From an uncultured Acidobacteriota bacterium (GTDB lineage Bacteria; Acidobacteriota; Thermoanaerobaculia; Multivoradales; DATKCC01): a DNA stretch of 64,000 nucleotides. Below, piece by piece: positions 17,612 through 53,956 of the stretch (within the stretch, counting starts at the first letter, position 1; each line of letters opens with the position of its first letter). Below the pieces are notes generated by a model. That model made no database searches. It was not told the DNA's origin and saw only the letters and a list, made by a program, of their open reading frames with translations. The stretch spans positions 410,798 to 474,797 of the forward strand of contig CAVUBL010000010.1 of the NCBI GenBank assembly GCA_963739795.1. Reading direction: 5' to 3'. Made by a program: the position numbers and the translations under genes.

Positions 17612-17688
17612 GGCGCGCTGCCCCAACTGGTAGAGGGGCCCGACTTAAAATCGGGCGGTTCCGGGTTCGAGTCCCGGGCGCGCTACCA
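17612..17688 (+). tRNA. tRNA-Leu(TAA), 77 nt, short variable loop, encoded CCA
   Basis: Acceptor GGCGCGC/GCGCGCT-A-CCA; anticodon arm CCCGA-CTTAAAA-TCGGG; T arm CCGGG-TTCGAGT-CCCGG. Confidence 0.9.
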
Positions 17689-37052: not shown

Positions 37053-37370
37053 TCAGGCCGCCGTGTGCCTCGGGATCTTCTCCACCTCGCTCTCGAGCTT
37101 CCGCTCGGCGTGCCAGAGGTCGTACTCCGTCTGCATGCGGAGCCAGAGGCCGGGACCGTTGCCGCAGAAGCGGCCCAGGCGGACGGCCATCTCGGGCGAG
37201 ACGGCGGAGCGCTCGGCGAGGACCGCGTGGAGCATCTGGCGCGAGACGCGGAGCTGCCGAGCGGCCTCGCTGACGCTCAGACCGAGGGCGGGGAGCACGT
37301 CCTCGCGGAGAATTGCTCCGGGGTGGGTCGGGGCCATTCGAGGTGGCTGTTCCGCGGGAATCTCGGGCAT
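37053..37370 (-). CDS. higA: HigA/VapI antitoxin
   Basis: THPGAILREDVL..LSVSEAARQL..SPEMAVRL..WLRMQ..YDLW. Confidence 0.9.
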   Translation of the reverse strand: MPEIPAEQPPRMAPTHPGAILREDVLPALGLSVSEAARQLRVSRQMLHAVLAERSAVSPEMAVRLGRFCGNGPGLWLRMQTEYDLWHAERKLESEVEKIPRHTAA

Positions 37371-37383
37371 CTCTCTCCTGCCT

Positions 37384-37659
37384 TCAGTGGTACTGCTCCA
37401 GGTCCACCCGGAGGGCATCGCCGTCGTCCCACTCGAACGTGATGCGCCACGGGCCGTTGACGGCGAGGGCGTAGCGTTCGGGCTTTCCGTGGAGGCGGTG
37501 GAGTCGCCAGCCGGGCAAGTCGAGATCCTTCGGGTCTTCTGCGGCCTGAAGCGCCGTCAGTCGCATCCGCACACGATCGACCAGGTCGGGACGGATCCCC
37601 TTCGGGTCGTTCGCGTTCCAGAGCCTCGCCAGCCCCTTGTGCCGGAAGCTCCGGATCAT
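37384..37659 (-). CDS. higB: HigB (RelE superfamily) toxin
   Basis: MIRSFRHKGL..DLDLPGWRLH.L.G..VNGPWRITF signature. Confidence 0.9.
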   Translation of the reverse strand: MIRSFRHKGLARLWNANDPKGIRPDLVDRVRMRLTALQAAEDPKDLDLPGWRLHRLHGKPERYALAVNGPWRITFEWDDGDALRVDLEQYH

Positions 37660-37667
37660 CGAAAGTC

Positions 37668-37696
37668 AGGCTAGCGGATGGCACCGCCATTGTCAA
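37668..37696 (-). promoter_or_regulatory. sigma70 promoter of higBA with palindromic operator in the spacer
   Basis: TTGACA-17-TAGCCT, 8 nt before ATG; ATGGC-ggt-GCCAT inverted repeat at 37678-37690. Confidence 0.7.
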
Positions 37697-37721
37697 GCGA
37701 GGCTTTACAGGTTGAGCGGCG

Positions 37722-37742
37722 GGCCCGCGCACAGCGCGGGCC
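37722..37742. other. Hairpin/cruciform downstream of VR2
   Basis: GGCCCGCGC-aca-GCGCGGGCC, 12 nt past the stop codon. Confidence 0.75.
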
Positions 37743-37754
37743 AGAGGGCCAAGA

Positions 37755-39939
37755 TCACAGTCCTCCCGACGACGAACAACACACCCGAAACCCGATGACG
37801 TCGTTGCGGCTCTCGGGATGGACGACGTCGCGGTAGGCCGCGCGCAGGTACCTCGGGTAGTCGTGGAACGAGCCGCCCCGCAAAACCCGCGACGCGCCCG
37901 AGGACGGTCCGCTCGGGTCCTTCTCGGCTTCCGGGGGGTAGTCCCCGTACCAATCACCGCACCATTCCCAGACGTTGCCGGCGAGATCTTGGACTCCCTC
38001 CGGCGTCGCCCCCTCGGGGTAGGCGCCCACCGGCGTGGTGTCCCCAACACTCATGCCAAAGTTGGCCAGCTGCTCGCTGGGCTCGGCGTCTCCCCACGGG
38101 TACTTGCGCCCGTCGGGCCGCCGGGCGGCGTACTCCCACTCCGCCTCGGTGGGCAGCCGCACAAGACGTTCGTCTCCGCCCTCGGAGATCCGGCTTGAGA
38201 GCCACTCGCAAAACGCCATCGCATCCATCCAGGAGACGTTGACCACCGGGTGCTCGTCCTTGCCCTCGGGGATCTGCCCGTCCACCCAATGCTCCGGAGG
38301 CTCCTTGCGCGTCGCCTTTACGAAGACGGCGTACTCGGCGTTGGTCACCGGGTGGCGCGAGAGCCGGAACGGGCTCACCGTGACACGCCGGACGGGGGAT
38401 TCGTTTTTCTGGGCCTCTGAATCGTAGCCCGGGCCGTCCGGCTTCGTCCTGCTGCGCCCCCATCCAGAAGCTGCCTCCGGGGATCTCGAGCCAGGCCCCG
38501 GAGCCCAGGTCGAAGAGGTCTCGCTTGCCGCTGACGGGCCGCGCCTTGGGCGCTTCGACTGCCGGCGGCGTGGCGAAGTAGACCAGCAGGTGGCGCTGGC
38601 GGTCGCTGAGCTCTCGCAGCACCTTGAGATGCCGCTCCGGAAGGCCGCTCGCCCGGATGCGGGCCCACTCCGGAGGAGCTTCCTTCTCCCCGGCCGTCCC
38701 CTCCGCCGAGTCCTCGGTCTCCAGCCGTTCCATGTCCAGGAGAAACTTCCTCAGGTTCTGGGGCAGCGCTCGCACCTCTCGCCAGCGGTCGGCGGGCAGA
38801 ATCTCGGAAAGGAGGTGCCAAGCGACGACAGCGGGCTCGGGTAGCTCTTCCTCCCCCTCGCCCAGCTTGCCCGTATTGCGGAGCACCGCGAGAGTCATCG
38901 AGAGGTCGTTCAGGAAACGCTTCACGTGGCGGGGGTGCCGGGTCTCCAGGGCTCGAGCCAGGACCCGGACGTCTTCGCTCCCGCGCTCGCCGCCCGATCC
39001 CAGGACCCTCGCCAGGTCGGAACCCTCGAGGAGGCCGGTCACGTACCCTTCCGCCCCACTGGGGCTCACCTCCGGAAGGTCGAAGGCGACCTGGACGACC
39101 TTCTCGAGGAACTGATCCGCCTGCCCCTGAACGGTCTCCGGCAGGACTTCGACCAGGCGCTCCCAGTCGATCCCCAGGAAGAAGCAGACGCCGGGGAGGT
39201 CGAGGAAGAGGTTGATGGCCTCGATCACCTCGACGACTCGCTCCCGCCGACACCGGTCCAGGTCGTCGAGGAAGACGGCCAGGACCTCTCGGCGCTGGGT
39301 TTCCGGGCTCCAGAGCTGCGCTTCGGTGAGGCCGCCGGTATCGCGGAAAGCGGGCTGGAGCTCGAAGAGGAGCCGGGAGACCTCGTTGAAGAGGTCCCGG
39401 AAGGTGTCGTGGAAGGCCCGCTTCTCGTGGGCCGGGGCGTAGCGGCTTTCCGGGCCGTCGCCGAGGATGAGATCCCGGAGCGGCGCCGGCGCCGCCAGGC
39501 CGAAGAGGGCCTTCAAGGTCGCGCTCTTGTACGAGCCGACCAGGTGCTTGAGCTGGTCGAGCATGCCGCCCTTGCGGAGCTCGTCGATGGCGGCGCCCAG
39601 CAGGCCGGCCAAGATCGTGTCGTCGTCCGGGTACTTCCAGGCGTTGAACCAGAGGGTCCGGACCTTGCGGACGCCGGCAGGAGGGTTCGACTCGGGCTTC
39701 CCCGGGTTCTCGAGTAGCCACTGCGCCCGGCGGAGCAGCGTCGTCTTGCCGCGCCCCCAGCCGCCCCGCACCACCACCGTGAAGGGCGTCGAGTTGTCCG
39801 GGTTCCAGGCCAGCTCCGCCAGGGTTCGGGCGAAGCCCTCGAAACCGAGATCCAGCTCTTGCTCCCGAAGGGGATGGTCCGGGAAGACGCGCGCGAGGCG
39901 GGACGCCTCCGACGCCTCGGACTTCTTGCCCTTGCTCAT
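37755..39939 (-). CDS. DGR target 2: KAP-family P-loop NTPase fused to FGE-sulfatase/CLec domain (one indel near 38450)
   Basis: GGWGRGKTT, FNAWKY, FLDDLDRC, FLEKVVQVAFDLP; [31 protein letters not shown]; ends in VR2. Confidence 0.88.
37758..37895 (-). repeat. DGR variable repeat VR2
   Basis: 138 nt; 12 substitutions versus TR in the variable core, all at TR adenines. Confidence 0.93.
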
Positions 39940-40961
39940 GGGCTCCATCCTCTCAAACTTCGCCACGTCCCGGCCAGCTCGACGTGGCCGCGCCAGGCGG
40001 CGAGGCTCCGCTCGAGCTCCTCCGGCAGCTCGCCACCCTGCCGGCGGCGCCGCAACCGGCGCCGATACCGTCGAACGGTCTCACCGCGGACCCGGATCCG
40101 ATCCGGCCAGACGACATAGCCCAGGAACGGAACCCCTTCGTCCGATCGGCGGATCGACGCTCTTGCGGGGGTGGGCCACGAGGCGAAGCTCCGCGAGCTT
40201 GCCTTCGACTCGTTCCATCCACTGCCGTCAGGACTGCTTCTCGTCGTGAAGGAGGATGAAGTCGTCGACGAAGCGCAGGTACGCCGGCGCGCGCAAGCGT
40301 CCTTACCCAGTGGTCGAAGCCGTCCAGGTACAGGTTGGCCCAGATCTGCGCGGTCAGATTGCCGATGGGCAGGCCCTGCCGTCGGTCCCAAGGGGTGAGA
40401 CAGTCGTCGCCTGGGAAGTAGCACGAAACGGCTCGCGGGCTCGTGCCCATGATCCACGATTCGATCGAGCAGGGAGAGGAGCAGGGCATCCTTGAAGATT
40501 CCCGGAACTTCGCCTTCAGGATCTCATGGTCGATGGCCGGGAAGTACTTCCGAACGTCCACCTTGAGGGCGTAGCGGAAACGGCCGGCGAAACGCTGGTA
40601 GCGGAGAACGGCCCGGTGGCTTCCCTTGCCCCGCCGGTTGGCCCAACAGTCGAAGATCAGGCGGCGGTCGATCTCCGGTTCGATCACGTTGCAGATCGCG
40701 TGATGGACCACCCGGTCGGGATAGGGAGCGGCCGAGATCCAGCGCCTCTTGGGATCGTGAACCAGGAAGTGGCGATGAGGTGAGGGGCTCCAGCTCTCGG
40801 CCGCGAGCTCTCGGCTCAGGCCGATGGAGGTGGTCCTCCAGGCGGCGGTTGAAGCAGAGGACGTCCGGGCGGTAGCGCTTCCCGCACTGGGCTCGGCGGG
40901 CAGCGAGACGGAGGTTTTCGAAAGAGCACACCTCGGCGAAGAGCCCTCCGACCCGGCGCAC
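39936..40961 (-). CDS. DGR reverse transcriptase (several single-base indels as sequenced)
   Basis: Assembled from frames: [67 protein letters not shown]. Confidence 0.88.
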
Positions 40962-40971
40962 GGCGCGACGC

Positions 40972-41335
40972 CTACTCTTCTCGACGGGGCCCGGTGGCCT
41001 GGAGCCACCCGCCGATCATCCGCCCCAGCTCCTCGTTCTGGCCGCTGATGTATTCGAGCTGGCGTGGGGACAGGGCCTCGACCTCGGCCGCCAGCCGCAG
41101 CAGGATGCGGAGCTGGTCCAGAAGGCGGTTCGCCCGGTGGAGGGGGCGCTCCTTGCTGCGGGCATGGGACGCCTCGACGAGGGCCATGCAGAGGTCGAGG
41201 GCCGTGGTCTGGAGCTCGGTCGCCCAGGGTCAACTTGTAGCCGCCGGGGAACCGCTCGACCCGCGGCAGCAGCCACCGGTTGACGTCGTACGCCTTCTGG
41301 ACGATGGGAAGTAGCGCGTCGTCTGAGGGCGACAT
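40972..41335 (-). CDS. avd: DGR accessory variability determinant (four-helix bundle; one indel near 41220)
   Basis: KAYD..WL...[27 protein letters not shown]...ELGRMIGGW. Confidence 0.85.
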
Positions 41336-41360
41336 GGAGAAGGGAAGACCCAGGCGGCGC

Positions 41361-41401
41361 CCCCGCCGCGCGTTCGCCGACGAGCTACCAGCGCGGCGGG
41401 G
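41361..41401. other. Stem-loop in the TR-avd spacer (Sp-like DGR RNA element)
   Basis: CCCCGCCGCGC-19nt-GCGCGGCGGGG perfect 11 bp stem. Confidence 0.45.
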
Positions 41402-41532
41402 AGCCTTCTTCTTCGCCCGCGACCCGCGGGGCGCGACCCGGTCGGCCGGCGGGACTGGAGAGCGCGCGCTCCAACCGGGCCACCGTGGTGGCGCGACTGG
41501 ACTCCGGCGTCGCACCTGGAAGGCCAGGCCCC

Positions 41533-41671
41533 CAGTGCTCCCGACGACGAACAACAACACCCGAAACCCGATGTTGTCGTTGCGGTTCTCGGGATGGTTG
41601 TTGTTGCGGTAGGCCGCGCGCAGGTTCCTCGGGTTGTTGTTGAACGAGCCGCCCCGCAAAACCCGCGACGC
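41533..41671 (-). repeat. DGR template repeat TR
   Basis: 139 nt, 10 in-frame AAC codons ([32 protein letters not shown]); non-coding location. Confidence 0.95.
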
Positions 41672-41734
41672 TGTGCCGGCTGACCGCGGAGACGGTATCA
41701 CGGCACCGCTCGGCGCTTGCAGGATTCGCGGCGC

Positions 41735-41753
41735 GCCCGCGCACGGCGCGGGC
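41735..41753. other. Hairpin/cruciform downstream of VR1
   Basis: GCCCGCGC-acg-GCGCGGGC, 13 nt past the stop codon. Confidence 0.75.
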
Positions 41754-41766
41754 CAAAGGGACGAGA

Positions 41767-44700
41767 TCACAGTCCTCCCGACGACGAACAACAAACCCGA
41801 AACCCGAAGTTGTCGAAGCGGCCCTCGGGATGGACGCCGTCGCGGTAGGCCGCGCGCAGGTACCTCGGGAGGCAGATGAACGAGCCGCCCCGCAAAACCC
41901 GCGACGCGCCCGAGGGCGGTCCGGTCGGGTCCTCCTCGTCTTCCGGGGGGTAGTTCCCGAACCAGTCGGCGCACCACTCCCAGACGTTCCCGGCCAGGTC
42001 GTGGAGCCCCTCCGGCGTGGCTCCCAGGGGATAGATCCCGACCGGTGTGGGGCGCCCGACGTTCCAGGCGAAGTTCGCATGGAGGGAATCCGGCTCCTCT
42101 TCTCCCCAGGGGTAGCGTCGGCCTTCCAGGCCTCGAGCAGCCAGCTCCCACTCGGCCTCGGTCGGCAGGCGCCCGCCCGCCCAGCGGCAGAAGGCGTCCG
42201 CCTCGTACCAGGAGACGTAGGTCACCGGGCGGTTCGGGTGCCGGAGCTGGTCGTTCCAGGAGTCCGGGCTCGTGTATCCCTCTCGCTCCCGCCAGGTCCA
42301 CCCTTCCGGGTCCCAGCTCCTGGGGTCGAGGTACCCCTCGTCGCCCGCCTCGACGAACCTCCGGTACTCCTGGACCGTCACCGGGTAGCGCCCGAGGACG
42401 AAGGGGCTCACGGTGACGCGGCGGACCGGGGATTCGTCGCCGAAGGCGTCCGGGTCGTAGCCAGGGCCAGGGGCCTCGGAGTCCGCCGTCTGGGCGCCCC
42501 TCCAGAAGGTGCCGCCGGGGATCGCCACCCGGTTCTCCTCCGGCTTCGCCAGACGCGGGTCCCCGGCCTGGCCGAGGGCCTCGCCCACGTCCACGCGAAC
42601 GGCTTCCTCGACGACCTCTTCGCCTTCCGCAGGAGGCTTGAAGATCGTGATGGCGTTCTCGAGGGCGGTCGAGTATGCGGTGCCCGCGGCGGGGTCACCG
42701 CCGTAGGGTTTGAGGTCCACGAGAATCCGGCCTACCAGGCCCACGGCCCGGGCCTCGCTCACCCGGTCGGTGCCGGTCGCGAGGATCTTCTCGAGGAGTC
42801 GCCGGGTGGCCCGCCGCCCGTCCAGGTGGCACAGGCACCCTGCCAGCAGCAGGACCACCTCGCTCCAGCGGTCGTCGTAGAGCCGGCCGTCCTTGGAGAG
42901 GACGTCCCAGTATTGGCCGTCGGTCTTGAGCTCGCGGGCCGCCAGATACTCCTGGAAGGAGAGATGCCAGAACTCGACCTCCCCCTCGGTGTGGCTCACC
43001 ACGATGCCACTCTCGAGCGCTTCGGCTTCGAGGAACGCCCGGCCCTCGGCCTCTCCGGTCTCGAGAACGGGGGCCACGGCTCGGCTCGCCTCGGGCAGGC
43101 CCAGGGAACGCTGGACGCCCTCTGGATCGGTGAACATGTCGAGGGCCAGGGCCTGGAGGGCCTCCTGCCGCTGGCTCGTCGTGAAGGCGAAGTGGTCCTT
43201 GTGGGAGTCCAGGAGATAGGAGATCGCCACCTCGTAGAGCTCGTTGCGGCATTCCGGGAGCTTCTTCTGGTTCCAGTGGACGACCGCGAGCATGGTGAGC
43301 ATCAGGGGGCTCTCGGTCATGGGGCCCACGTCCTCGTGGGAGCGGATGGCCTCGAGGAGCTCGGCCTCGTACTCCGCCGCCTCCCGGCTGGCGTCGGGGC
43401 CGGCGCCCGCACCCTCCGACCCCGGGTCCCGGACCTGGAAGAGGGCGCGGCTCCAGCCGCGGATGAAGGTCGCCACCTGGTCATCGTCGAAGGGCGCCAA
43501 GGGATAGGCGGGCAGGCCGCCGAGGTGCGCGAGCCGCTGATAGGCCCGGGTGCGGCAGGTGATGAGGTGGCGGTTGGGGCGGTCGGTGGAGCCGGTGGCC
43601 ACCAGCTCGTCGACGATGGCGGCGACCCGGGTGCGGAGCGCCCCAGGCACCTCGTCGAGGCCGTCCAAGAGGAGGAAGCAGCCGCCCGAGGTGACACGGC
43701 GGCGCAGGTAGCCCTCCGACAGGCCGAGGTTTCGGCCCTGGAGGTCGAAGTCCAGGTACCGAAGCAGGTGGTCGGGGGCGTCTTCGGGGCAGGAATCGTT
43801 CGGCTGGTCGGCCAGGAACCGGGCGAAGCTGGAAAGGTAGACGAGGACCGGGAAGGGGATCTCCTCGGCGGTGGTGGCGTCGAGGCCCAGCTCGCGGGTC
43901 GCCAGTCTCGGGTCCCTGGTGAGGAGCGACCGGGCCAGGACCTGCGCCGCGAAGCGGAGGAAGGTGGTCTTGCCCGACCCCGGGTCGCCGATGAGGACGG
44001 CGTGCGGCGAGCGGCTGAGGGCCTCGGGAAGCTCGAGGTGCCGCTCCCGGCGGAGATCCTCCTCGATGGGCTCGTGCTGCCGCCCTTCGGGTCCGACGCC
44101 GGCCACTCGAAGGCGGGTGTAGACGCGATCGAGCGGAAGGCGCTCGGCGACCTGAGCGCCCATACCCCGGATCTTGACGTAGGAGTTGCGGCTCTCGACG
44201 GCCTGGAGGTAGCGGGTGGGGTCGGGACCTGCCGGTCGCCGCGTGCCCTCCGACCCCCAGGCTCACCACTTCCTGGGCCACCTTCGGGCCGGTGGCCTGC
44301 GATCTGTCGGCGAGCTCCTCCACCAGCTCCAGCAGCCGCTTCGCCACGTCCTCCCAGGCCTTGTCCTCGTTCCCCCACTCGGGGTCCGTCACGGCGAGGC
44401 CGTTCGTGGGAAGGGCCTGGAGCTTGCCGAACGGAGCGGTCTGCCAGTTCCCCGTCGGCCGGACGATCACCGGCACCACCCGGGCCTCGCCTCTTCGCCT
44501 CCCGCTCCAGCGCCCGCTTCATCTCCCGGCCCCAGATGAACTCCGAGGCGATGAAGTCGTCGCTCACCAGGAAGAGGATGAGGTTCGCCCGCTCCAGCTC
44601 TTCCGCGATCCCCTCCTCCCAGCGGTCGCCGGGGAGGAGCTTGCGGTCGGTCCAGGTGTCGATCAGGCCCTGGCGCTCCAGGAGCTTGAGCGCCTTCTCG

Positions 44701-44774
44701 AGGCGGATCCGGTGCCGGTCGTCGGCGTGCGAGTAGCTGAAGAAGACCCGGACGGGTGGACGTTCGTCGCTCAA
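41767..44774 (-). CDS. DGR target 1: TIR-NACHT(STAND)-FGE-sulfatase/CLec protein (indels near 44500 and 44225)
   Basis: [35 protein letters not shown] (TIR); [28 protein letters not shown] (NACHT); FGE motifs; ends in VR1. Confidence 0.88.
41770..41907 (-). repeat. DGR variable repeat VR1
   Basis: 138 nt; 16 substitutions versus TR in the variable core, all at TR adenines. Confidence 0.93.
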
Positions 44775-45084
44775 GAGATTCCTCCGATGGAGTGGAAGCT
44801 ACCACCCTGAGTGGTGGGAACCACCTGGCCGTTTCGCATCAAGCCGGCGGGCGCCGGAGCTCGGCCGGGAGATTTCCACAGGGAGCTTCGGAGCGGCGCC
44901 GTGGCAGAACCGGCACTCCGGCGGGCATGGCCGGGGTGAGCCCAGGGATGTCGGTCATGGTCCCGACTCCAGGCACGAAACGAAGAGCGATCGTCACGCC
45001 GAGGCGCCGATCGAGGGCGGCGGGGGCGTTGCCCAAAGGACCCGGCGCGGGAGGGCAGCCGTGCAGTCGACGCACCTCCGCTCC

Positions 45085-45720
45085 ACTCAAGTGGACGGTG
45101 AGGGCGAAGTACACGGCCAGCGGTACGCCGTTGAGTCGCGCGGGCCGAACCACCGACGGCGGATCGCTTGAGGGCACTGTAACTAGCGTCGCCTGTCGAG
45201 GGCCTCCGGAACGCCGCGGTTGGATACCTGCCCGTGCATGGCGATCATCGTCTCTACGTCGACGCGTCCGCGGACCGCGAAGAACTGAGTGCCGAATGGA
45301 AACTTCTCAGGTAGTCGGGCGTACCCGTGGGTCGAGTGAGCTTGCCGGGTGGCGAGGCGTGAACCGACACCGCCTCGCCGTCCGCGAGCAGCGTGGGCCG
45401 GGCCTCACGGAGCGGGTTCGCGGCGAGCAGGCTCCCCGGATCGCCGAACTGCCGAGGACCTCGCTCGCCAACGAGGAGTCAAGTTGAGCGCCACGTGCCA
45501 GTCCCAGATCGTCGCTTCCGGGCGACGAGACCGGCCTCGCTAGAGGACGGTGAATCAAGAAGATGCCGAGAACCTGACTAGCCAACCGCCCTGGGCCGAG
45601 GCGCTCGACCATCTCGTCGAAGAGCGGCTCAGATTTCATCTGTCCGCGTGTAATCGCGGGCCAGGAGGGCTTGCTCGCCTTCCTGATCGAGGTCCTCCAG
45701 CGCTTGCGGCGGTCCCGGGC
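45085..45720 (-). pseudogene. Degraded TonB C-terminal-domain gene
   Basis: Fragments GRVDVETMI..GQV and RPARLNGVPLAVYFALTVHL in different frames. Confidence 0.35.
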
Positions 45721-45964
45721 GCGGAGGGCTCCCGGGAAGATGGTGGGTAGGAGCGCGAACGTTGTCCACACGCGATCCACGAGACCCTCCCAAGCCGACG
45801 CTAGGCAGGAGACAAGAGTGTCCTGTCCCGGGCGGGAGAGATGGCGGTCTCGGGCCGCCCTGGCTCGCTTGGGGATTCGGTGGACCGTCGCCTCCGAGCT
45901 GTCGCGCCAGGATCCCCCCGAGGCTCGAGTTGAGCCGCCCGCCGCCTGGTATCATCGGCAGAGA

Positions 45965-46213
45965 ATGAAGCCGCCGCCACCAGCGCTCTCTGGTTCGGGC
46001 GTGTCCCCGACTCCGGTTCGCGGTGTCTCTCACTCGCGGGACGACGAGAGCCTCGAAGCGAAGGCGCGATGGTTCCAATCGCTCTCCGTCGAAGAGCGGA
46101 TGGCGTATCTCGTCGAGCTCACTGAGCTGGCCCTCCAGAACAACCCCCGCATCGCCGAGTCCAAGGATGCTCCAGCGGCTTCAGGGCGTGTTCGCGTCCT
46201 TACGCTCCCATGA
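45965..46213 (+). CDS. Small protein paired with the nucleotidyltransferase (putative TA partner)
   Basis: KARWFQSLSVEERMAYL; overlaps the downstream NTase; duplicated at 33.0 kb. Confidence 0.55.
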   Translation: MKPPPPALSGSGVSPTPVRGVSHSRDDESLEAKARWFQSLSVEERMAYLVELTELALQNNPRIAESKDAPAASGRVRVLTLP

Positions 46214-46622
46214 CGTCGAATACCTGGTGATCGGCGGAATCGCCGCCGTTCTCCACGGGGTGCCGCGGGCGACGTTCGATCTCGACATCCTCATCCGGCC
46301 GGACCTCGAGAACGCCCGGCGACTCCTCCAGGCATTGCTCGCGGCAGGACTGGCCACCGCGGACCTGACGACGCCCGAGGAAGTTCTGGCCAACGAGATC
46401 ACCATCTTTCAGGACCGCGTCCGCATCGACGTCCAGACGTCGACGCCGGGCCTCGACTTCGAGACGGCCTGGCGGCGGCGGGAGACCATGGACTACCAAG
46501 GGGAGCCATTCTTTGTGGTGTCCCGCAAGGACCTGGTGGCCTCGAGGCGAGCCGCCGGGCAGGACGTGGATCTTCAGGACGCGGAGATGCTCGAAAGCGC
46601 CGGCGAGGACGAGGACGCCTGA
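46167..46622 (+). CDS. Minimal nucleotidyltransferase (DUF6036/MNT-like)
   Basis: YLVIGGIAAVLHGVPRATFDLDILI, RIDV and AAGQDVDLQD motifs. Confidence 0.8.
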   Translation: MLQRLQGVFASLRSHDVEYLVIGGIAAVLHGVPRATFDLDILIRPDLENARRLLQALLAAGLATADLTTPEEVLANEITIFQDRVRIDVQTSTPGLDFETAWRRRETMDYQGEPFFVVSRKDLVASRRAAGQDVDLQDAEMLESAGEDEDA

Positions 46623-46724
46623 CGGTAAGGCGGCGGCCCCGGCTCTGGGTCTTCGGGGCCTGGCCGGCGGTGGGGCGGCGAGGTGGTTCAGGGAGAAGAG
46701 CCTGGCAGCCCCCCCTGGGCGGCC

Positions 46725-47186
46725 CTACAGAGGCACCTCGCTCCATCGGAAGGTGGGGACGAAGCGCTCCAGATGTCGCACGTTCTCGGTGACGACAGAG
46801 CCGCCGACGGCAATCGCTTGAGCGGCGAGGATGGCGTCGCCGTCGAGTGCCTCCGGCGCCGCGGTGGGGCGCCCACTGTGGCGAGCCTCGGCCCACAGGC
46901 CGGCAGCTCGTCGGAGCGTGGACGTGTCAAGGCTCAGGTAATCGAGCGTCTCGGTGAGTCGGTCGAGGCGCTGTAGGCTCCGAGTCGTGGACCGCCCGCT
47001 GCGAAGGGCAACGTGCAGCAGACCTCGCCGGACCTCGTAGTCGACGATCTCGGGAAGGCAGATCACGATGGAGTGAGCCCCCTCGAGTAGTAGTTGCGTG
47101 AGCCACGCAGCCACGGGATGGTTCGCCTCGCGGGCTGGATGGCACAGCCTCGAGACGACCGTCGAGTCGAGAAGGAGAACCGTCAC
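46725..47186 (-). CDS. vapC: PIN-domain (VapC-like) toxin
   Basis: LLLDSTVV, IVDYEVRRG, DGDAILAAQA and TENVRH acidic tetrad. Confidence 0.85.
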   Translation of the reverse strand: MTVLLLDSTVVSRLCHPAREANHPVAAWLTQLLLEGAHSIVICLPEIVDYEVRRGLLHVALRSGRSTTRSLQRLDRLTETLDYLSLDTSTLRRAAGLWAEARHSGRPTAAPEALDGDAILAAQAIAVGGSVVTENVRHLERFVPTFRWSEVPL

Positions 47187-47374
47187 TCAGGACAACGCAC
47201 GCCGAGGGTGGGGAGCTCTTCCTCGAGGAGGGGCCAGATTTCATCGTCGTAGCCAGTCGGGTCTTGCTCCCACTTCCGGAGGAGGTCGGCTGCTCGGCGA
47301 TACCGGCGCACGCGATCCCGCTCCGCCGGTTCGGCGGTGACTGGTTCCTGGGGAGAAGTGATGCTCGTCTTCAT
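47183..47374 (-). CDS. Putative VapB-type antitoxin (63 aa)
   Basis: Small acidic ORF overlapping the PIN start. Confidence 0.55.
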   Translation of the reverse strand: MKTSITSPQEPVTAEPAERDRVRRYRRAADLLRKWEQDPTGYDDEIWPLLEEELPTLGVRCPE

Positions 47375-47798
47375 GGTCTCGGCGGGAACTAAGTGGACCT
47401 TCCGAGTGTAGCAGAGCTTCGGAGCGAGACCCGGCCCCGGGTCAGAAGCACCTGGCACGACACCCAGGTGCGGGAGGAAGCTCGCGGAGAGCTCAAGGAC
47501 GCGGCGCGGAGGGTCGGCCAGGTGATCGGCGTTCGCTCGCTCGTGGCGCAGGCGGCGCCGGGGATCGGCACGGCGCTCGGGCTGGTGCGGATCGCTCGGC
47601 GGGTGGTGCGGCAGATGGAGCTGGATCGGGGGGGTGGGCGGGAGCGGTGACGGGGGACACCGGCCGCCCGCCGCCCTATTGCGCATTCGCAAGCCAGGCC
47701 CAGAAGCACCTGGCACACCCTCCGGCGAGCTCGAGGAGAACGGCGTTCACCTGGAGGCCGTCGAGGGGCAGCGCCTTTCTACCCCTCTGGGGAGAGCT

Positions 47799-47906
47799 TC
47801 AGCCAGCCGGACCCAGGACGAACCGCGCTCGCTCCCGCCGGAGCATTGCGTAGGGCGTCATGTGCTTCACACCGAGCCCGATGCAGGCGTCCAGGAGGTA
47901 GGCCAT
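47799..47906 (-). pseudogene. DUF4411 (PIN-like) gene with large internal in-frame deletion
   Basis: 35 aa MAYLLDA|CIGLGVKHMTPYAMLRRERARFVLG matches my recollection of the DUF4411 N- and C-termini joined; TGATG-coupled to the peptidase gene. Confidence 0.65.
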
Positions 47907-49051
47907 CAGAAGCCCACTCCGAGGCTCTGGCCCAACTGGTGGAACGTCGCCATCTTCTTGACGCCCAGCAGGCGGAACGATTCGGTGAACGAGGTCCGTC
48001 CTTCCAGCGTGCTGGTGACCATGGCCCGGGCAAAGCGCTTGCTGACGCGGGCCGGGAGGGTGAGGTAGAAGTTGCCGCCGGAGCCCCGGGGCATGCCGCG
48101 CAGGCGGGCCAGCTCCTCCTCGTAAGCCGACCAGAGCTCAGGCCGGCTCAGGCCACCGGCGTCGTGGATACGGCGAAGGACGACCAGGGTGCTCACCTTG
48201 AAGCGCCGAGCCAGGCGGGCGAGCTCGCTCCGCAGTGGGGCCTTTGCGTCGTACTCGGAGCGCACGAGCTCGAGCGGAGCCAGGAGCTCGGCGGCGACGC
48301 GGTTGCACCAACGTTCGGTCGTCTGGTCCGGAACCGCGACGGCTTGGGCATCGGACACCGCGGACTGACCCAGCCACAGATGCGCGAGCTCGTGGGCGAG
48401 GGTGAACATCTGCGCCGCCTTGGTGTCGGCGCCGTTGATGAAGACCAGGGGCGCGAGCGGATCGCTGAGGGCGAATCCTCGGAACTCGTCCGGGTCCAGG
48501 TGGCGGTGGGTGTTGCTCCCGACGACTCCGCTCACCATCACCAAGATGCCGAGGTCGTCGGCCTGGGCGATGAAGCGGCGGAGCGCCTCCGTCCAAGTGG
48601 AGAGGCGGCGGCGCTCCTCGACGTCGAAGGCCAGGGCGCCTCGGATGGCTGCGGCGGTGGCCACGACGTCGTCTCCAAGTCCCGCCGAGCCGGTGAATCC
48701 GAGCGGTCTCTCCCCCACCGAGCGCGCGAAGTCGCGGAACCAGTCCTGGCGCTGCTGGCAGAGGTAGATCGTGTCGAGGAGGTCCGGGCTGGGACGCCCG
48801 AAGCCGGCGCTGGCGACGGTGCGGAAGTCCGGGATCGGGACTTCCTCGGCCGGCGGCTCGGGCAGGAACAGAAAGCCGATCGGGGTGAAAGTCGCCCTGG
48901 CGAAGCGTTCGAGCTGCTTGAGGGTGGGAAGCCGTTCACCGCGTTCCCAGGCGTCGAGCTTCGGGAAGCGCCTACCGAGCGCATCGACGCTCAAGCCGCT
49001 GCGCTCGCGGGCCCAGCGGAGCAGCTCGGGCTTCACCTCTACACGGTTCAT
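47906..49051 (-). CDS. HTH + ImmA/IrrE-family Zn metallopeptidase
   Basis: N-terminal XRE HTH (LRWARERSG..PTLKQLE); FTLAHELAHLW HExxH. Confidence 0.9.
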   Translation of the reverse strand: MNRVEVKPELLRWARERSGLSVDALGRRFPKLDAWERGERLPTLKQLERFARATFTPIGFLFLPEPPAEEVPIPDFRTVASAGFGRPSPDLLDTIYLCQQRQDWFRDFARSVGERPLGFTGSAGLGDDVVATAAAIRGALAFDVEERRRLSTWTEALRRFIAQADDLGILVMVSGVVGSNTHRHLDPDEFRGFALSDPLAPLVFINGADTKAAQMFTLAHELAHLWLGQSAVSDAQAVAVPDQTTERWCNRVAAELLAPLELVRSEYDAKAPLRSELARLARRFKVSTLVVLRRIHDAGGLSRPELWSAYEEELARLRGMPRGSGGNFYLTLPARVSKRFARAMVTSTLEGRTSFTESFRLLGVKKMATFHQLGQSLGVGF

Positions 49052-49559
49052 CGTTCTCCTTCGCCTTTAGAGCTGGAACGGGCCTCTCGATCGACTCAAG
49101 CTACGACGCGCGGGACCTCGTCTGGATCGACACGAGAGGAGGTCCGGGAAGGGGTGACTGGCGAGGGCGCTGTGGAGGGAGGGGCCACCGCCCACGCGGC
49201 TGGGTGCTTGAGGCGAGCCAGTTGCCAGGGGTTTGTGAAGGAGGGCAGAGCTGTATGGGAGGGGAGGGTGGGTGAGCAGCTGCGCTGCTAGGAGGGGGGG
49301 TTTGGAGAGGTAGCGAGGGCAGTGCTGAGGAGGGTGGTAGGCGCTGCAGGGGTTTGGGATGGGATGGGGGTAGGCGCTGGGGATGGAGCAGCTTCAGTAT
49401 AGCGGGAGCGCTCGCGCTAGGTGCGGTGACTTCACCGGTAAGCAAGTGGATGTGCACGCTGCAGCGTGCCATCGAGGAGCTGGATCGCGGGGGAAGGTGG
49501 GGGCGGTGGGGTGGGGATCCCCGCGGGTTTAGCGCAGTTGCGGGAAGCGGGCTTCAGCT

Positions 49560-50069
49560 TCACGGGTTCGGCACGAAGCGATGCTGGAATCCTGCGTCCT
49601 CAAGCGGCGCCGCAGATCCCGAGCTCCTGGATGGTCGGAAACGCGAAGAGAAAGGGCGCATGCGAGACGTAGTAGAAGGCTGGGAAACGCTCTGGTGCAA
49701 GGCCCGCAGCTTGGCTCCTCTCTGGTCAGCGAGGTCGAGCTCATGGCTGCGGTAATGGCTCTGGTCAAAAGTGATGATGCAGCGAGGCTCTCGTCGCAGC
49801 TGATCCACTATCGAAGCGACGCGATGTGCGTGCGCCTTCGGATTGATTAGCCTCGCCTGGCAAACGGATTCCGGTATCTGGGTGTTCAGGAGCGAATAGA
49901 TGGACGGTCGGTTGTGCGGCAAGATGGCAATTCCGGTGAGGCGGGTGAACTCCCCTGAAGATCCTCGGGCGGGAACCGGGGCTCTGCGTAGATGGGTGCC
50001 AGTCCGCGAGGAGCTGCTGCCAGAGCCCCTTGACCACATCGTAGGAGTGGCCAGGTAGTCGCGTTTCAC
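49560..50069 (-). CDS. Hypothetical protein, frameshifted, lower GC
   Basis: Coherent segments MKRDYL.HSYDVVK, CIITFDQSHYR and FYYVSHAPFLF across frames. Confidence 0.4.
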   Translation of the reverse strand: MKRDYLATPTMWSRGSGSSSSRTGTHLRRAPVPARGSSGEFTRLTGIAILPHNRPSIYSLLNTQIPESVCQARLINPKAHAHRVASIVDQLRREPRCIITFDQSHYRSHELDLADQRGAKLRALHQSVSQPSTTSRMRPFSSRFRPSRSSGSAAPLEDAGFQHRFVPNP

Positions 50070-50255
50070 TGTCGAAGCGTCTCTGAGGCCAACGGCCTAT
50101 CGTTAGCGGCGGCGCCACTTGCCACTGCCCCTGCCATCGCGCTCCCTGCGCCCCACGACGAGGTGTACACTGACTCGGGAACCTTTCGCGAGGACGACAG
50201 GTGCAAGTTGGGTGGCGACCACTGAGGAGATGCATTGAGGCCGTCTCCAGAGGCC

Positions 50256-51210
50256 TTAGTGGAACTGCCTCAGAATCTTCCTGACTGTTCGGTCCAGGTC
50301 TTGATCTGTCTGTCGTAGCTGCTCAATCTTGTCCACAGCGTACATCACCGTAGAATGGTGTTTGTTGCCGAATGCTTTCCGATTTCTGGGTATGAGAGGT
50401 TTGTCAACTTCTTGCAGCAATACATCGCTACCTGGCGAGGAAATGCGACCTGTTGGGAATTTGTCCGGCTCAGAACCTCGTCGACTTTGAGGCAGTAGAG
50501 ACGTGCTACATGCCTGATGACCGCGCGCGCGTCGACGCGGCGTTTACGCGATCGTCTGACGGATGCCGCTCGGTTCTCCGCCAGCTTCGCCAGGTAGGGA
50601 ACGGTGTAGATGCTCTCCAAGAGGGCACGACAGAGGTCCGAGAGGAGGTCCGCCTCGCCCGCCGAAAGCTCGCCAGGTCCGCGTGAGCCCCAATGTTCCG
50701 CATTCTTCTAAACTGGGAGGCAACGCGGACGAGCTTTGGCGGGATCTCCCCTTTTTCCTCGAGGTTCTTAAGTTTCTCAAACAGGTTGTCGCCCCGAGCG
50801 TCGCGATCCGCACAAACTCTCTCGATCACCCTCCCAAGCAGAACAGCGTAGCCGTTGAAGTCGATGGGCTTCACGCGCTCCGCGGCTTCCAATGCGGAGG
50901 CTACCTCCTCTGGCAAGCCTTTCGGGTGGAGTTCTCCAGGTGGGTAAACGGTGTCCGTCAGAATTAGTTCAGGGCTCCCGCCCTCCTCAAGAATGCCCTG
51001 CACTTCATGTTCCGTTCCCTGAGAGAAGAGAAGGCTAATACCTCCGTACGGTGGGCAACGGACCAGCTCCCAGGTCCTCCATGCTGTGTCGCCTCCGGAG
51101 GCATCTTCTTCCTCGCTGTACTCCCGAAGTACGTAGAGAAGTCCGGAATTCCCGCAATGTCGGCAGAGATGGGGGGCTGCAGTCAGCCGTCCGTCGGGGT
51201 CTCCTGGCAT
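50256..51210 (-). CDS. DUF4145 (HEPN-like) domain fused to DnaA domain IV (two single-base indels)
   Basis: CRHC; LGRVIERVC..LFEKL..L..RNIGAH; then FPRQVAMYCCKKLTNLSYPEIGK(A)FGNKHHSTVMYAVDKI. Confidence 0.75.
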
Positions 51211-51385
51211 CAACCACCCTCCCGCGGGCCACCTATCGCTTCCAGGCGAATGTTCGGCATCGAAGCATGTCTTAGACCAAGCGACGAGCCGGCCTCACCT
51301 TCAGTTGCGCGGCCGCGGTCGCGCCTCGGCGGCTCTCCACGCCGGACGGGACGAAGGCCCGAAGGCAACCCTGATCATCCACTCC

Positions 51386-51586
51386 TTATTCGTCCAGATG
51401 AAGATGAGCCCGAAGCGCCTCCCTCATGATCTCCGAGGCAGGTCTGTCTTCCTCAAAGGCGGCTCTCCGCAACGCCTCTCGCTCATCGGGATGCAGGTAG
51501 ACCACACTCCGTATCAGTCCGGCCTTCGTAACGGTCGTTTTGCCTCCGCGCGGCCCCTCTGTCGGGGGTTTGGATTTCTTCGCCAT
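51386..51586 (-). CDS. Ribbon-helix-helix (CopG-like) regulator
   Basis: RSVVYLHPDEREALRRAA..SEIMREAL; SD GGAGG upstream. Confidence 0.7.
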   Translation of the reverse strand: MAKKSKPPTEGPRGGKTTVTKAGLIRSVVYLHPDEREALRRAAFEEDRPASEIMREALRAHLHLDE

Positions 51587-51629
51587 GCACTCCTCCCAGC
51601 GAGAGTATACATGATGGGATTTAGGGCTC

Positions 51630-51658
51630 TTGACATTAGGACCCAAAGGCCCTAGCCT
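51630..51658 (+). promoter_or_regulatory. sigma70 promoter, back-to-back with the RHH gene promoter
   Basis: TTGACA-17-TAGCCT; flanking TAGGGC/GCCCTA inverted repeat; TATACT on the minus strand at 51604-51609. Confidence 0.55.
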
Positions 51659-51791
51659 AGGTGACGGCGACTTCGAAGATGCTGGAGCGCCGCAAACACG
51701 GGGCGGGCTGCCGCCGCCCACAAACAGAAACGGCCCCGGCAGGTGCGGACACACCCACCGGAGCCTGACCACTCAAGGAGGTACAAGCTCC

Positions 51792-52136
51792 ATGAGCAGC
51801 TTGACGGATCGTATCTCGCCCGCCGACCCGACGAACGAGCAGCTTCGGGTCTCCCTTCTGATCGGCCTCGGCCTGCTGCACATCGGGGCCGAGATCCTTT
51901 CCCGGGCCCCGGACGTCGAGACGGCGCTCGAGGCCGGGGACCGGGAGCGGTTTCGGCTCCTCTTCGCGGCAGAGGCGGCCCACTGCTGGGTCGTCGGCCA
52001 CGGCGCCTCCGACTCGGCCGACTTCCCCGGCCAGGACAGCGCCTTCGCGGCGGCGCTTCGCGCCCTCGACTGGACGCCCGAGGAGCTGGAGCGGCACTTC
52101 TCCGCCGCGCTCGCCGACCTCCGCGAGGAGGGCTGA
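51792..52136 (+). CDS. Hypothetical protein
   Basis: SD AGGAGG, ATG 51792, TGATG-coupled to radC. Confidence 0.55.
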   Translation: MSSLTDRISPADPTNEQLRVSLLIGLGLLHIGAEILSRAPDVETALEAGDRERFRLLFAAEAAHCWVVGHGASDSADFPGQDSAFAAALRALDWTPEELERHFSAALADLREEG

Positions 52137-52864
52137 TGGGCGGCCCGAGCGGGAAGAGTCGCCCCAAGCCGTTCTCTCCTCCAGCGCCGAGCCTGATCCG
52201 GGAGATGCCTCCCGATGAGCGGCCCCGGCAGCGGCTCCTCCGGAGCGGCGGCGCGGTCCTCTCCGACCCGGAGGTGCTGGCTTTGGTGCTCGGCAACGGG
52301 TGCCGGGCAGTGTGCAGCCTGGAGCTGGCGCGGGGCATCTTGCAGGAGACGTCCGGGATCGGCGGCCTCGTGGGCATTCGGGCCAGCGCGCTTCGGCGTC
52401 GGGGGGTGGGCGAGGCCAAGGCCGCCGCGGTGCTGGCGGCGCTGGAGCTCGCCCGGCGACTGGTGCAGGCCGAGGTTCCCGAGCGCATCCCCATGGACCG
52501 GCCCCGGGCCGTGGCGAGCTATCTGGTGCTGCGCTACGCCCTCCGGGACCAGGAGGTGATGGGTGCGCTCTACCTCGACGTCCGGCGGCGGCTACTCGGA
52601 GAGGGGGAGGTGTTCCGGGGAGCCATCGGCCGGACCTGCGTCGAGCCCCGGCAGATCCTCTGCCGGGCTCTGCTCCACGGGGCAGCAGGTGTGGTGCTCT
52701 TCCATTCGCACCCGAGCACCGATCCTTCGCCGAGCCCGGAGGACGTCCGCTTCACCCGGAGGATGGACGCCGCGTGCGAGGTGGTCGGCGTGCAGCTCCT
52801 CGACCACCTGATCCTCGGGAACGCGCAGAGGTGGGTGTCGCTTCGGGACCGGGTGCGCTGGTGA
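52136..52864 (+). CDS. radC: RadC/JAB-domain protein
   Basis: ERPRQRLL..G...LSD.E.LA.VL; HSHPS.DP.PSPED..FT; LLDHLILG. Confidence 0.9.
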   Translation: MGGPSGKSRPKPFSPPAPSLIREMPPDERPRQRLLRSGGAVLSDPEVLALVLGNGCRAVCSLELARGILQETSGIGGLVGIRASALRRRGVGEAKAAAVLAALELARRLVQAEVPERIPMDRPRAVASYLVLRYALRDQEVMGALYLDVRRRLLGEGEVFRGAIGRTCVEPRQILCRALLHGAAGVVLFHSHPSTDPSPSPEDVRFTRRMDAACEVVGVQLLDHLILGNAQRWVSLRDRVRW

Positions 52865-53245
52865 TGCGAGGGGAGGAGTACCTGCTGTTCGTGCCCCCCG
52901 GGCCACAGGCTTCGCCCGTGGCCCCTCCCCCACCCGCAGGGACTTGCAGCTTGGCTCCCGGGCGCCAGGCGCCCGGTCTCCAAACTGCCTGGGGCTGTCA
53001 GTCGCCGGAGTGGCTGGGCGGCCTGTGCCGGAGGGCCGCGCACCTGGCGTGTCCCCTTCGAGGTGAACGGCGTTCACCTGAACGAAGGCGTCGCGAGAGG
53101 GTGCAGATCTCTACACTGAGCGCATGGAACACGCGCCTTCGCTCAGCCAGTGCCGGCGACGCCGGGCGTGTCTCAGGGACTCCTCCCTGCGCATTTCCCG
53201 GATCGGAACCGGCCTTCCCCAAACCTCACTTCTAAAGGAGCCGAC

Positions 53246-53473
53246 ATGACCCCATCTACCGAAGCCGAATCCCCCGTCACCCTCGTCAACCAGGTCAAGG
53301 CCGCAGAGATCCTCACTGTCGATCCTCGAACCTTGGCGGGCTGGCGCTACCGCGGAGGTGGGCCGCCGTTCGTCCGCATCGGCAACCGGGTGCGCTACAA
53401 GGTCCGCGATCTCTATGCGTGGATCGAGGAGCGGACGTTCCAGTCCACCGCCGAGGCCGATGAGCTGGCGTAG
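53246..53473 (+). CDS. HTH_17/AlpA-like excisionase-type DNA-binding protein
   Basis: KAAEILTVDPRTLAGWRYRGGGPPFVRIGNRVRY. Confidence 0.8.
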   Translation: MTPSTEAESPVTLVNQVKAAEILTVDPRTLAGWRYRGGGPPFVRIGNRVRYKVRDLYAWIEERTFQSTAEADELA

Positions 53474-53491
53474 CTGCACCCCCTGGAGTCC

Positions 53492-53510
53492 GCTTCCTAT
53501 GTGCTTCCTA
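53492..53510. repeat. GCTTCCTA direct repeat (11 bp period) next to the tRNA-Cys 3' end
   Basis: Copies at 53492-53499 and 53503-53510; candidate integrase arm sites. Confidence 0.4.
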
Positions 53511-53577
53511 CGGCCAGATGGCTCCGGCCGGGACACGGACCTCGAATGAACAACTCCTTTGTCTAGAGAGGCTTAAA

Positions 53578-53652
53578 TGGAGGCGACGGGCGGATTCGAA
53601 CCGCCGAATGAGGGTTTTGCAGACCCTTGCCTTACCACTTGGCTACGTCGCC
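53578..53652 (-). tRNA. tRNA-Cys(GCA), encoded CCA
   Basis: GGCGACG..AGGGT-CTGCAAA-ACCCT..GGTTCGAATCC..CGTCGCCTCCA. Confidence 0.96.
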
Positions 53653-53697
53653 TTGGGCGGGGTCGGAGCGCGCCCTTGGCGGCCCGACTGCGCGGCG

Positions 53698-53783
53698 AGT
53701 TTAGCATCCACTCGACGAGCCTTCAACAGGCCCGGAATCGAGCCTCGGCGGCGCTTGACAGTGCCCGCCGGCCCGTCTATCCT
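53698..53783. promoter_or_regulatory. Divergent sigma70 promoters for tRNA-Cys and tRNA-Gly
   Basis: Minus strand TTGAAG-17-TAAACT (53698-53726); plus strand TTGACA-17-TATCCT (53755-53783). Confidence 0.65.
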
Positions 53784-53795
53784 TGGCCTCCCCGG

Positions 53796-53870
53796 GCGGG
53801 AATAGCTCAGTGGTAGAGCACAACCTTGCCAAGGTTGGGGTCGCGGGTTCGAATCCCGTTTCCCGCTCCA
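53796..53870 (+). tRNA. tRNA-Gly(GCC), encoded CCA
   Basis: GCGGGAA..CAACC-TTGCCAA-GGTTG..GGTTCGAATCCC..TTCCCGCTCCA. Confidence 0.97.
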
Positions 53871-53956
53871 TTCCTCTGAAAGTCCGACGCAGGATTCCGT
53901 CGATCCGCCCGGCGCCTCGCGCGCCGGGCGTTCGTGTCTTCGGGGGCTCCCCTTTC

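Follow-up and report, generated by a model that had tools for sequence, protein, structure and literature searches.

A frameshifted gene for a putative TIR-NACHT-lectin protein as an apparent target of an adjacent diversity-generating retroelement in an uncultured Acidobacteriota bacterium

Proteins that join a STAND or NACHT NTPase to a C-type lectin (CLec) fold were reportedly predicted by Kaur et al. in 2020 to be antigen sensors diversified by diversity-generating retroelements (DGRs). Here we looked into a candidate of this kind, a gene at positions 41767 to 44774 of a 64,000-nucleotide stretch of DNA from an uncultured Acidobacteriota bacterium (the whole stretch that was analyzed is called the window), which lies next to a DGR and which we call target 1. 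Kibby et al. describe NACHT proteins of the "FGS domain type" as probably diversified by a DGR reverse transcriptase (RT) and as possible analogues of antigen receptors; they place TIR among the N-terminal effectors and cite Kaur et al. 2020 for DGR diversification of the FGS domain (bioRxiv 10.1101/2022.07.19.500537). Doré et al. 2024 reported clade 5D DGRs with two CLec targets that carry NACHT/nSTAND1 or KAP NTPases, some with an N-terminal TIR, and stated that none of these targets was experimentally characterized (PMC10907252). Furthermore, a 2026 survey of STAND proteins places sensors resembling the FGE-sulfatase domain (FGE, formylglycine-generating enzyme) among defense-associated STAND clades (citations for Avs, antiviral STAND, and for STAND proteins, PMC13581612 and PMC11564622). 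The concept, and the two-target layout with a KAP partner and an N-terminal TIR, are thus already published (PMC10907252; bioRxiv 10.1101/2022.07.19.500537).

We consider it likely that the stretch from 44774 to 41767 is one gene for a cytoplasmic, tripartite protein resembling the NOD-like receptors (NLRs), whose surface encoded by the first variable repeat (VR1) is rewritten by the adjacent DGR. With two +1 shifts bridged, the gene (41767..44774) would encode a TIR domain, a NACHT domain, a helical spacer and an FGE-type CLec domain over some 1000 codons; target 1 and the features of its DGR cassette are all on the minus strand. Translation of 44900 to 41700 in three frames showed a TTG start codon at 44774, with the Shine-Dalgarno sequence GGAGG upstream, and a stop at 41767, so that 44774 to 41767 runs exactly from start to stop. 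An earlier note on this DNA, made from the letters alone, had given the gene these same end points and had held that two indels must be bridged to read it, and we found both +1 shifts, near 44492 and within 44245 to 44309.

The first part of the TIR domain (residues 1 to 93, 44496..44774) is 95.7% identical to residues 1 to 93 of the ortholog P0002. Frame 0 carries the reading up to ALEREAK near 44492, where frame 1 takes over; the alignment of homologs locates this frameshift exactly, right after ALEREAK, and at this point (44488..44496) the window has one base more than the intact ortholog (GCGAAGAGGCGAGG vs GCCGCG-GGCGAGG), which divides the TIR domain. The second part of the TIR domain and the start of the linker follow in the +1 frame (44264..44491). 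The second frameshift lies in the TIR-NACHT linker (44245..44309), where the window is 37 nt longer (net +1) than L001, the closest intact ortholog locus by DNA; divergence of the linker prevents its exact placement. Beyond it, a single open reading frame (ORF) continues to the stop at 41767. GC at third codon positions was 0.8 to 0.96 across all three frames in a window with a GC content of ~69% and passed from phase to phase without a gap in the frame plot, so the coding signal is continuous.

Next, we used the bridged 1000-aa protein as a query for homologs and retrieved 837 proteins at the cut-off of an E value ≤1e-5. Of the best 120, 63 are single proteins with all three of TIR_2, NACHT and FGE-sulfatase, and homology on this scale excludes a chance occurrence of the three-domain target 1. 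Sixteen homologs of 954 to 1205 aa are 66 to 76% identical to the bridged query over 98 to 100% of its length, with the same three domains in one chain, and because these intact homologs bear all three domains in one protein, the TIR-NACHT-CLec fusion is ancestral. The earlier note had named separate TIR and NACHT genes as what would undo its reading; as far as sequence allows, the full-length identity of the intact orthologs places the two domains in one polypeptide. More distant relatives retain the NACHT-CLec part and have the N-terminal module exchanged for a metallophosphatase, DUF4062, caspase, Mrr nuclease, cyclase or kinase, a modularity typical of conflict-system effectors. At the DNA level, the best matches to the cassette show 81 to 85% nucleotide identity, and its closest relatives are Acidobacteriota (Thermoanaerobaculia, Holophagae and Bryobacterales). 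These relatives, along with a gene content characteristic of the phylum, suggest a Thermoanaerobaculia-like acidobacterium as the source. The order target 1, template repeat (TR), Avd, RT, target 2 recurs in L001 and is intact in L009, a Holophagae metagenome-assembled genome (MAG). With the RT as a tblastn query, Avd or RT adjoined the homolog at a minimum of 18 of 82 relatives' loci (≥18/82); because flank length and sensitivity limited what could be found, we did not take this count as a frequency.

The earlier note had proposed an N-terminal TIR with a glutamate at the catalytic position, a NACHT domain with Walker A and Walker B motifs and a C-terminal FGE/CLec domain, and had suggested a hidden Markov model search of the bridged protein; with Pfam, TIR_2, NACHT and FGE-sulfatase were all recovered, and each of these elements stood. 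TIR_2 matched the bridged N terminus over residues 10 to 121, across the first junction (E value = 6.7e-16). The translation of 41767 to 44262 matched NACHT (PF05729; E value = 2.3e-7, 31.2 bits against a cut-off of 26.7) and FGE-sulfatase (E value = 1.1e-57). At least 90% of 49 full-length homologs share the glutamate E84 of the motif SEFIWGREM (within GREM; codon 44525-44523), which aligns with the DEL-motif glutamate of the plant protein AtTIR (3jrn) and of the CRISPR-associated NADase Cat1, a position that we take to be that of the catalytic glutamate on the strength of established TIR biochemistry. This alignment answers the other ground on which the earlier note would have given up its reading, a TIR without the catalytic glutamate. 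Within the NACHT NTPase domain (43450..43998), the residues G, P, G, G and K of Walker A (GDPGSGKT, 43989-43966) are invariant in the 49 homologs and its remaining positions are at least 90% conserved, and the DGLDE of Walker B (LLLDGLDE, 43674-43651) is invariant.

We made the structural comparison on the ortholog P0002, not on the frameshifted protein of the window. P0002 is 76% identical to bridged target 1 and 96% identical to the window over residues 1 to 93, and its TIR matches the PADLOC model of ThsB1 (E value = 2.2e-52). Its AlphaFold2 model (predicted local distance difference test score [pLDDT], 84; predicted template modeling score [pTM], 0.68) matched NLRC4 (4kxf) over ~620 columns in Foldseek (E value = 1.8e-13), with an NLRC4-like fold across the NACHT domain, and its C terminus matched FGE/EgtB folds. 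On this model, the NACHT module is predicted to have the nucleotide-binding, helical and winged-helix architecture of NLRs. The predicted sensor, an FGE-sulfatase-type CLec fold (41794..42537), also matches TvpA (2y3c), a DGR variable protein of solved structure (E value = 7e-20). The catalytic cysteine pair of FGE is not conserved in this domain: compared with Thermomonospora curvata FGE, the first position is a variable AAC codon encoded by the TR and the second is Leu. In the target 1 protein we found no hydrophobic segment (the maximum Kyte-Doolittle value over 19 residues was 1.29), and the protein is therefore predicted to be cytoplasmic.

The DGR follows target 1 in the minus-strand order target 1, TR, Avd, RT, target 2. 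VR1 (41775..41907) is a 133-nt repeat at the C terminus of target 1, and the TR (41538..41671), rich in AAC codons, lies between target 1 and the gene for the accessory protein Avd (40975..41335; bAvd, E value = 1.1e-15 after bridging). The RT gene (39936..40961) matches RVT_1 after bridging (E value = 1.9e-13) and encodes the motifs IGNLTAQ and FVDD. Target 2 (37755..39966) joins a KAP-family P-loop NTPase, which resembles the defense ATPases QatA and PifA, to an FGE-type CLec domain ending in a second C-terminal repeat, VR2 (37763-37895).

Comparison of the repeats showed the signature of adenine-specific mutagenesis that would be expected of a DGR. VR1 differs from the TR by 16 mismatches at TR adenines and 1 elsewhere, which is synonymous; VR2 differs by 12 mismatches at adenines and 0 at other bases. 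Pooled, 28 of 29 mismatches fall at TR adenines, which make up 27 of 133 positions, and VR1 and VR2 also differ from one another at TR-adenine positions. The two kinds of repeat can be told apart at the initiation of mutagenic homology (IMH in the VRs, IMH* in the TR), the VR ends reading GGGAGGACTG and the TR reading GGGAGCACTG. These patterns argue that target 1 is a genuine DGR target, as the earlier note had inferred for its binding surface, and the same TR serves the second target, the KAP NTPase-CLec protein. Near-identical hairpins of the form GGCCCGCGC-NNN-GCGCGGGCC, with a GC stem of 8 to 9 bp, stand past the stop codons of both targets, one just downstream of VR1 (41735..41753, 8-bp stem, GC-rich) and its equivalent after VR2 (37722-37742); no equivalent hairpin was found after the TR. 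They resemble the target-recognition hairpin of DGRs. Two smaller observations concern the TR and RT. The TR has an extra T at ~41557 (GGGTGTTGTTGTTCG) that is absent from its own two VRs and from the L001 TR; if copied, this base would frameshift a target. The hallmark motif of the RT reads IGNLTAQ in the window and IGNLTSQ in the aligned relatives.

A mechanism of ligand binding, oligomerization and TIR activity is plausible by analogy with Avs, bNACHT proteins, eukaryotic NLRs and TIR effectors. The protein would be laid out as a ThsB-like TIR effector, a NACHT (STAND) switch with helical and winged-helix modules and an FGE-type CLec sensor. The diversified CLec surface would bind a ligand derived from an invader or associated with infection, and binding would relieve autoinhibition of the NACHT module and permit NTP-dependent oligomerization. 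The TIR domains, thereby clustered, could cleave NAD+ or make a nucleotide signal, with growth arrest or abortive infection as the outcome, and adenine-specific mutagenic retrohoming would yield new sensor specificities. A further idea, which we think improbable, is that the ThsB-like TIR acts as a signal synthase instead of a terminal NADase and that the TIR-NACHT-CLec and KAP NTPase-CLec proteins, diversified from one TR, make up a single programmable circuit that relays recognition through a TIR-made nucleotide to an effector encoded in trans, the recurrent decay of cassettes in Thermoanaerobaculia then being a cost of autoimmunity.

Several points weigh against a diversified sensor working at this locus. 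No STAND-CLec DGR target has a demonstrated function (PMC10907252), and none of the PADLOC family models matched the NACHT-CLec translation. Among the neighboring genes scanned there was no ThsA-like gene (SIR2/SLOG or Macro) and no other signal-responsive effector, so a signaling role of the TIR has no visible receiver. Most directly, target 1, RT, Avd, TR and target 2 are all disrupted, and the full protein is not encodable from the copy as sequenced; with target 1 in pieces and the RT nonfunctional as sequenced, this copy supports no claim of activity, and target 1 is probably inactive here.

The lesions were located by comparison with L001 and its proteins. Target 1 has two frameshifts (44492; 44309-44245), Avd has one +1 frameshift (~41216), the RT has frameshifts at ~40822, 40502, 40445, 40305 and 40150 and an in-frame TGA at ~40231, and target 2 has one +1 frameshift (~38446). 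Inspection of the indel contexts in the cassette showed that most lesions are single-base insertions and revealed no motif shared among the sites and no homopolymer. We then asked how the bridged proteins fare at highly conserved columns. Bridged target 1 breaks 3 of 182 such columns, against a median of 5 among 49 intact homologs, and the bridged RT breaks 2 of 38, its other conserved columns being intact. Neither protein thus shows a sign of prolonged neutral drift in violations of highly conserved columns, a test that does not discriminate between assembly error and very recent decay. No frameshift was found in the housekeeping and efflux genes of the window (nuoF-N, AcrB, AcrA, OEP, CCA/polyA polymerase, TonB receptor and CysS), and AcrB was matched over profile positions 1 to 1020 of 1021. 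These results indicate that the cassette is either recently inactivated or locally misassembled.

Should the indels be genuine, the entire DGR cassette, target 1 included, would be a recently pseudogenized defense island, a fossil and not a working sensor; to this we give an even chance. The number and placement of the lesions point that way, with 9 frameshifts, one in-frame TGA and a 1-nt TR insertion in ~7 kb, set against more than 30 kb of intact housekeeping and efflux genes in the window, and the related loci L008, L010, L001, L002 and L003 are degraded as well. Three further features favor real decay and speak equally against the other explanation, that the indels are assembly or consensus errors in strain-variable or poorly polished islands and that the gene is intact and the DGR active in the organism: the HigB, PIN, ImmA/IrrE and RadC genes of the same island show no visible frameshift, the lesions are concentrated in the RT (6 in 1 kb), and the TGA arose by substitution, unlike a typical consensus indel error. 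The second shift in target 1, a length difference of 37 nt and not of 1 nt, also fits such errors poorly. We nevertheless hold misassembly to be quite possible, if a little short of probable. Bridged target 1 and the bridged RT are as conserved as intact homologs, the VRs differ from the TR at a single non-adenine position, a near-perfect adenine-only pattern that suggests recent retrohoming, and the lesions are mainly +1 insertions in nonrepeat contexts outside homopolymers, an odd spectrum for natural bacterial indels; each of these observations favors error, or a very recent inactivation, over decay, and a contig of 514 kb would fit a long-read assembly. The broken hsdM in another accessory island of the window can be read either way, as decay of a second system, in which hsdS is broken too, or as what lower or mixed coverage would produce.

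Two other explanations concern the gene product itself. We judge it very improbable that TIR and NACHT-CLec are two genes or that programmed ribosomal frameshifting joins them. An ATG at 44163 does open a 798-aa NACHT-CLec ORF, which is the gene call for target 1 in the protein database (P0001, a NACHT-FGE remnant), called there without an effector domain because of the frameshifts. However, the unbridged 485-aa ORF matches just TIR_2 profile positions 1 to 81 of 122, and the rest of the profile is read in another frame; an intact TIR domain is thus absent from the copy as sequenced, and the first shift, falling inside the TIR fold, is not a gene boundary. Programmed frameshifting would require two successive +1 shifts, which share no slippery motif, the orthologs are single ORFs, and lesions of the same kind occur in RT, Avd, TR and target 2. 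The alignment of homologs and the truncated TIR_2 match led us to reject both versions. It is also conceivable, at a low probability, that the protein is real and yet is not an antiphage sensor, its CLec domain tuning a regulatory or kin-recognition pathway or its FGE-like domain being an enzyme. A regulatory role has been proposed for cyanobacterial DGR targets (PMC7517822), the source annotations of the homologs read formylglycine-generating enzyme or SUMF1/EgtB/PvdO, and NCBIfam gave subthreshold matches to EgtB and SenA. Those matches reach ~140 bits, far under cut-offs of 360 to 420, and with the loss of the catalytic cysteine pair we ruled out an FGE or EgtB enzyme; the CLec domain of target 1 is a putative binding domain, as judged from its residues. 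Against a role outside defense, the exchanged N-terminal modules (TIR, caspase, Mrr nuclease, metallophosphatase and DUF4062) are typical conflict effectors, and the locus stands among toxin-antitoxin and restriction-modification genes.

The related loci vary in their state. In L001 (5883-8499), an insertion sequence (DDE_Tnp_1) follows an RT that ends at about residue 270 to 279. In L008 (2515-5252), a short-read MEGAHIT MAG, a frameshift interrupts target 1 at residue 624, its VR is gone, and target 2 comes next, with neither Avd nor RT in between. In L002 and L003, a target is present and no RT was seen within the sequence examined. L010 (8001-9602), from a long-read Acidobacteriota MAG, has an in-frame variant lacking residues 132 to 566, the whole NACHT region, which leaves the TIR joined straight to the helical spacer and CLec domain; the variant may be what remains after a deletion or a TIR-lectin protein that naturally has no NACHT.

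The cassette belongs to an island at ~37300 to 53900, between a TonB receptor gene and the tRNA-Cys and tRNA-Gly genes (53578-53870). Beside the DGR, the island holds genes for a HigB toxin, a PIN protein, an ImmA/IrrE protein with a helix-turn-helix (HTH), DUF4145, RadC and an HTH_17 excisionase-like protein; HigB, PIN, ImmA/IrrE and RadC are single ORFs over most of their Pfam profiles. GC falls to 0.61 at 50 to 52 kb, and no integrase was seen within ~37300 to 53900. The window also contains a type I restriction-modification island (18349-21139, minus strand) adjoining tRNA-Leu (17612-17688). There, a frameshift splits hsdM precisely at position 48/49 of the N6_Mtase profile, hsdS is present only as fragments, and hsdR is an uninterrupted ORF of 1111 aa that matches EcoEI_R_C and ResIII in full.

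DGR-diversified NLR-like proteins are the closest proposed bacterial analogue of anticipatory antigen receptors, germline-encoded switches whose sensor is somatically rewritten. By itself, the locus leaves existing knowledge unchanged; it contributes a clear case of a TIR effector from Acidobacteriota, beyond the multicellular taxa stressed so far, and directs attention to intact orthologs, namely P0002 and the L009 cassette. It also carries a warning for annotation, in that sensor proteins bear enzyme names: public annotations call the target 1 family formylglycine-generating enzyme or SUMF1/EgtB/PvdO nonheme iron enzyme, which is misleading.

Among known systems, the clade 5D DGRs come with a similar pair of targets (PMC10907252). 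As at this locus, both targets end in one FGE-type CLec domain that contains the VR, the central NTPase of the one is a NACHT and that of the other a KAP, a TIR stands at the N terminus, Avd and RT are encoded alongside, and the proteins are predicted to be cytoplasmic. The likeness is one of layout, which makes the RT of the window a candidate member of clade 5D, and the Thiohalocapsa PB-PSB1 relative (L020) is 37% identical to target 1 over the NACHT-CLec part. The clade 5D paper is without Acidobacteriota, whereas the relatives of this locus are Thermoanaerobaculia and Holophagae, not known as multicellular, and the copy in the window is frameshifted throughout (PMC10907252). The antigen receptor type of bNACHT proteins has in common with target 1 an effector-NACHT-sensor layout and an FGS sensor proposed to be DGR diversified; bNACHT01, bNACHT11 and bNACHT25, unlike target 1, are not described with an FGS sensor in the accessible portion of the preprint (bioRxiv 10.1101/2022.07.19.500537). 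The NACHT antiphage protein EruA gave a weak, partial NCBIfam match to target 1 (52 bits against a cut-off of 1000). Avs proteins likewise consist of an effector, a STAND NTPase and a C-terminal sensor (PMC13581612, PMC11564622), and no Avs model in PADLOC matched target 1. Their sensors are germline-fixed TPR-like repeats for conserved phage proteins, whereas that of target 1 is a single lectin fold that would be somatically rewritten.

Moreover, the TIR resembles that of Thoeris ThsB in its match to the ThsB1 model, made with P0002, and in the conserved glutamate at the catalytic position. ThsB works on its own, sensing and synthesizing a signal for ThsA, whereas the TIR of target 1 is fused to a NACHT switch; we rejected a Thoeris identity, with no ThsA (SIR2/SLOG or Macro) among the neighbors scanned. 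Finally, TvpA of Treponema denticola (PDB 2y3c) shares with target 1 an FGE-subtype CLec domain with a VR at its C-terminal end, and in both the FGE active-site region appears, from the residues that occupy it, to be reused as a variable binding site. To our knowledge, TvpA has not been described with a signaling module; in target 1, unlike in TvpA, the lectin fold is the predicted sensor of a cytoplasmic NTPase-effector machine.

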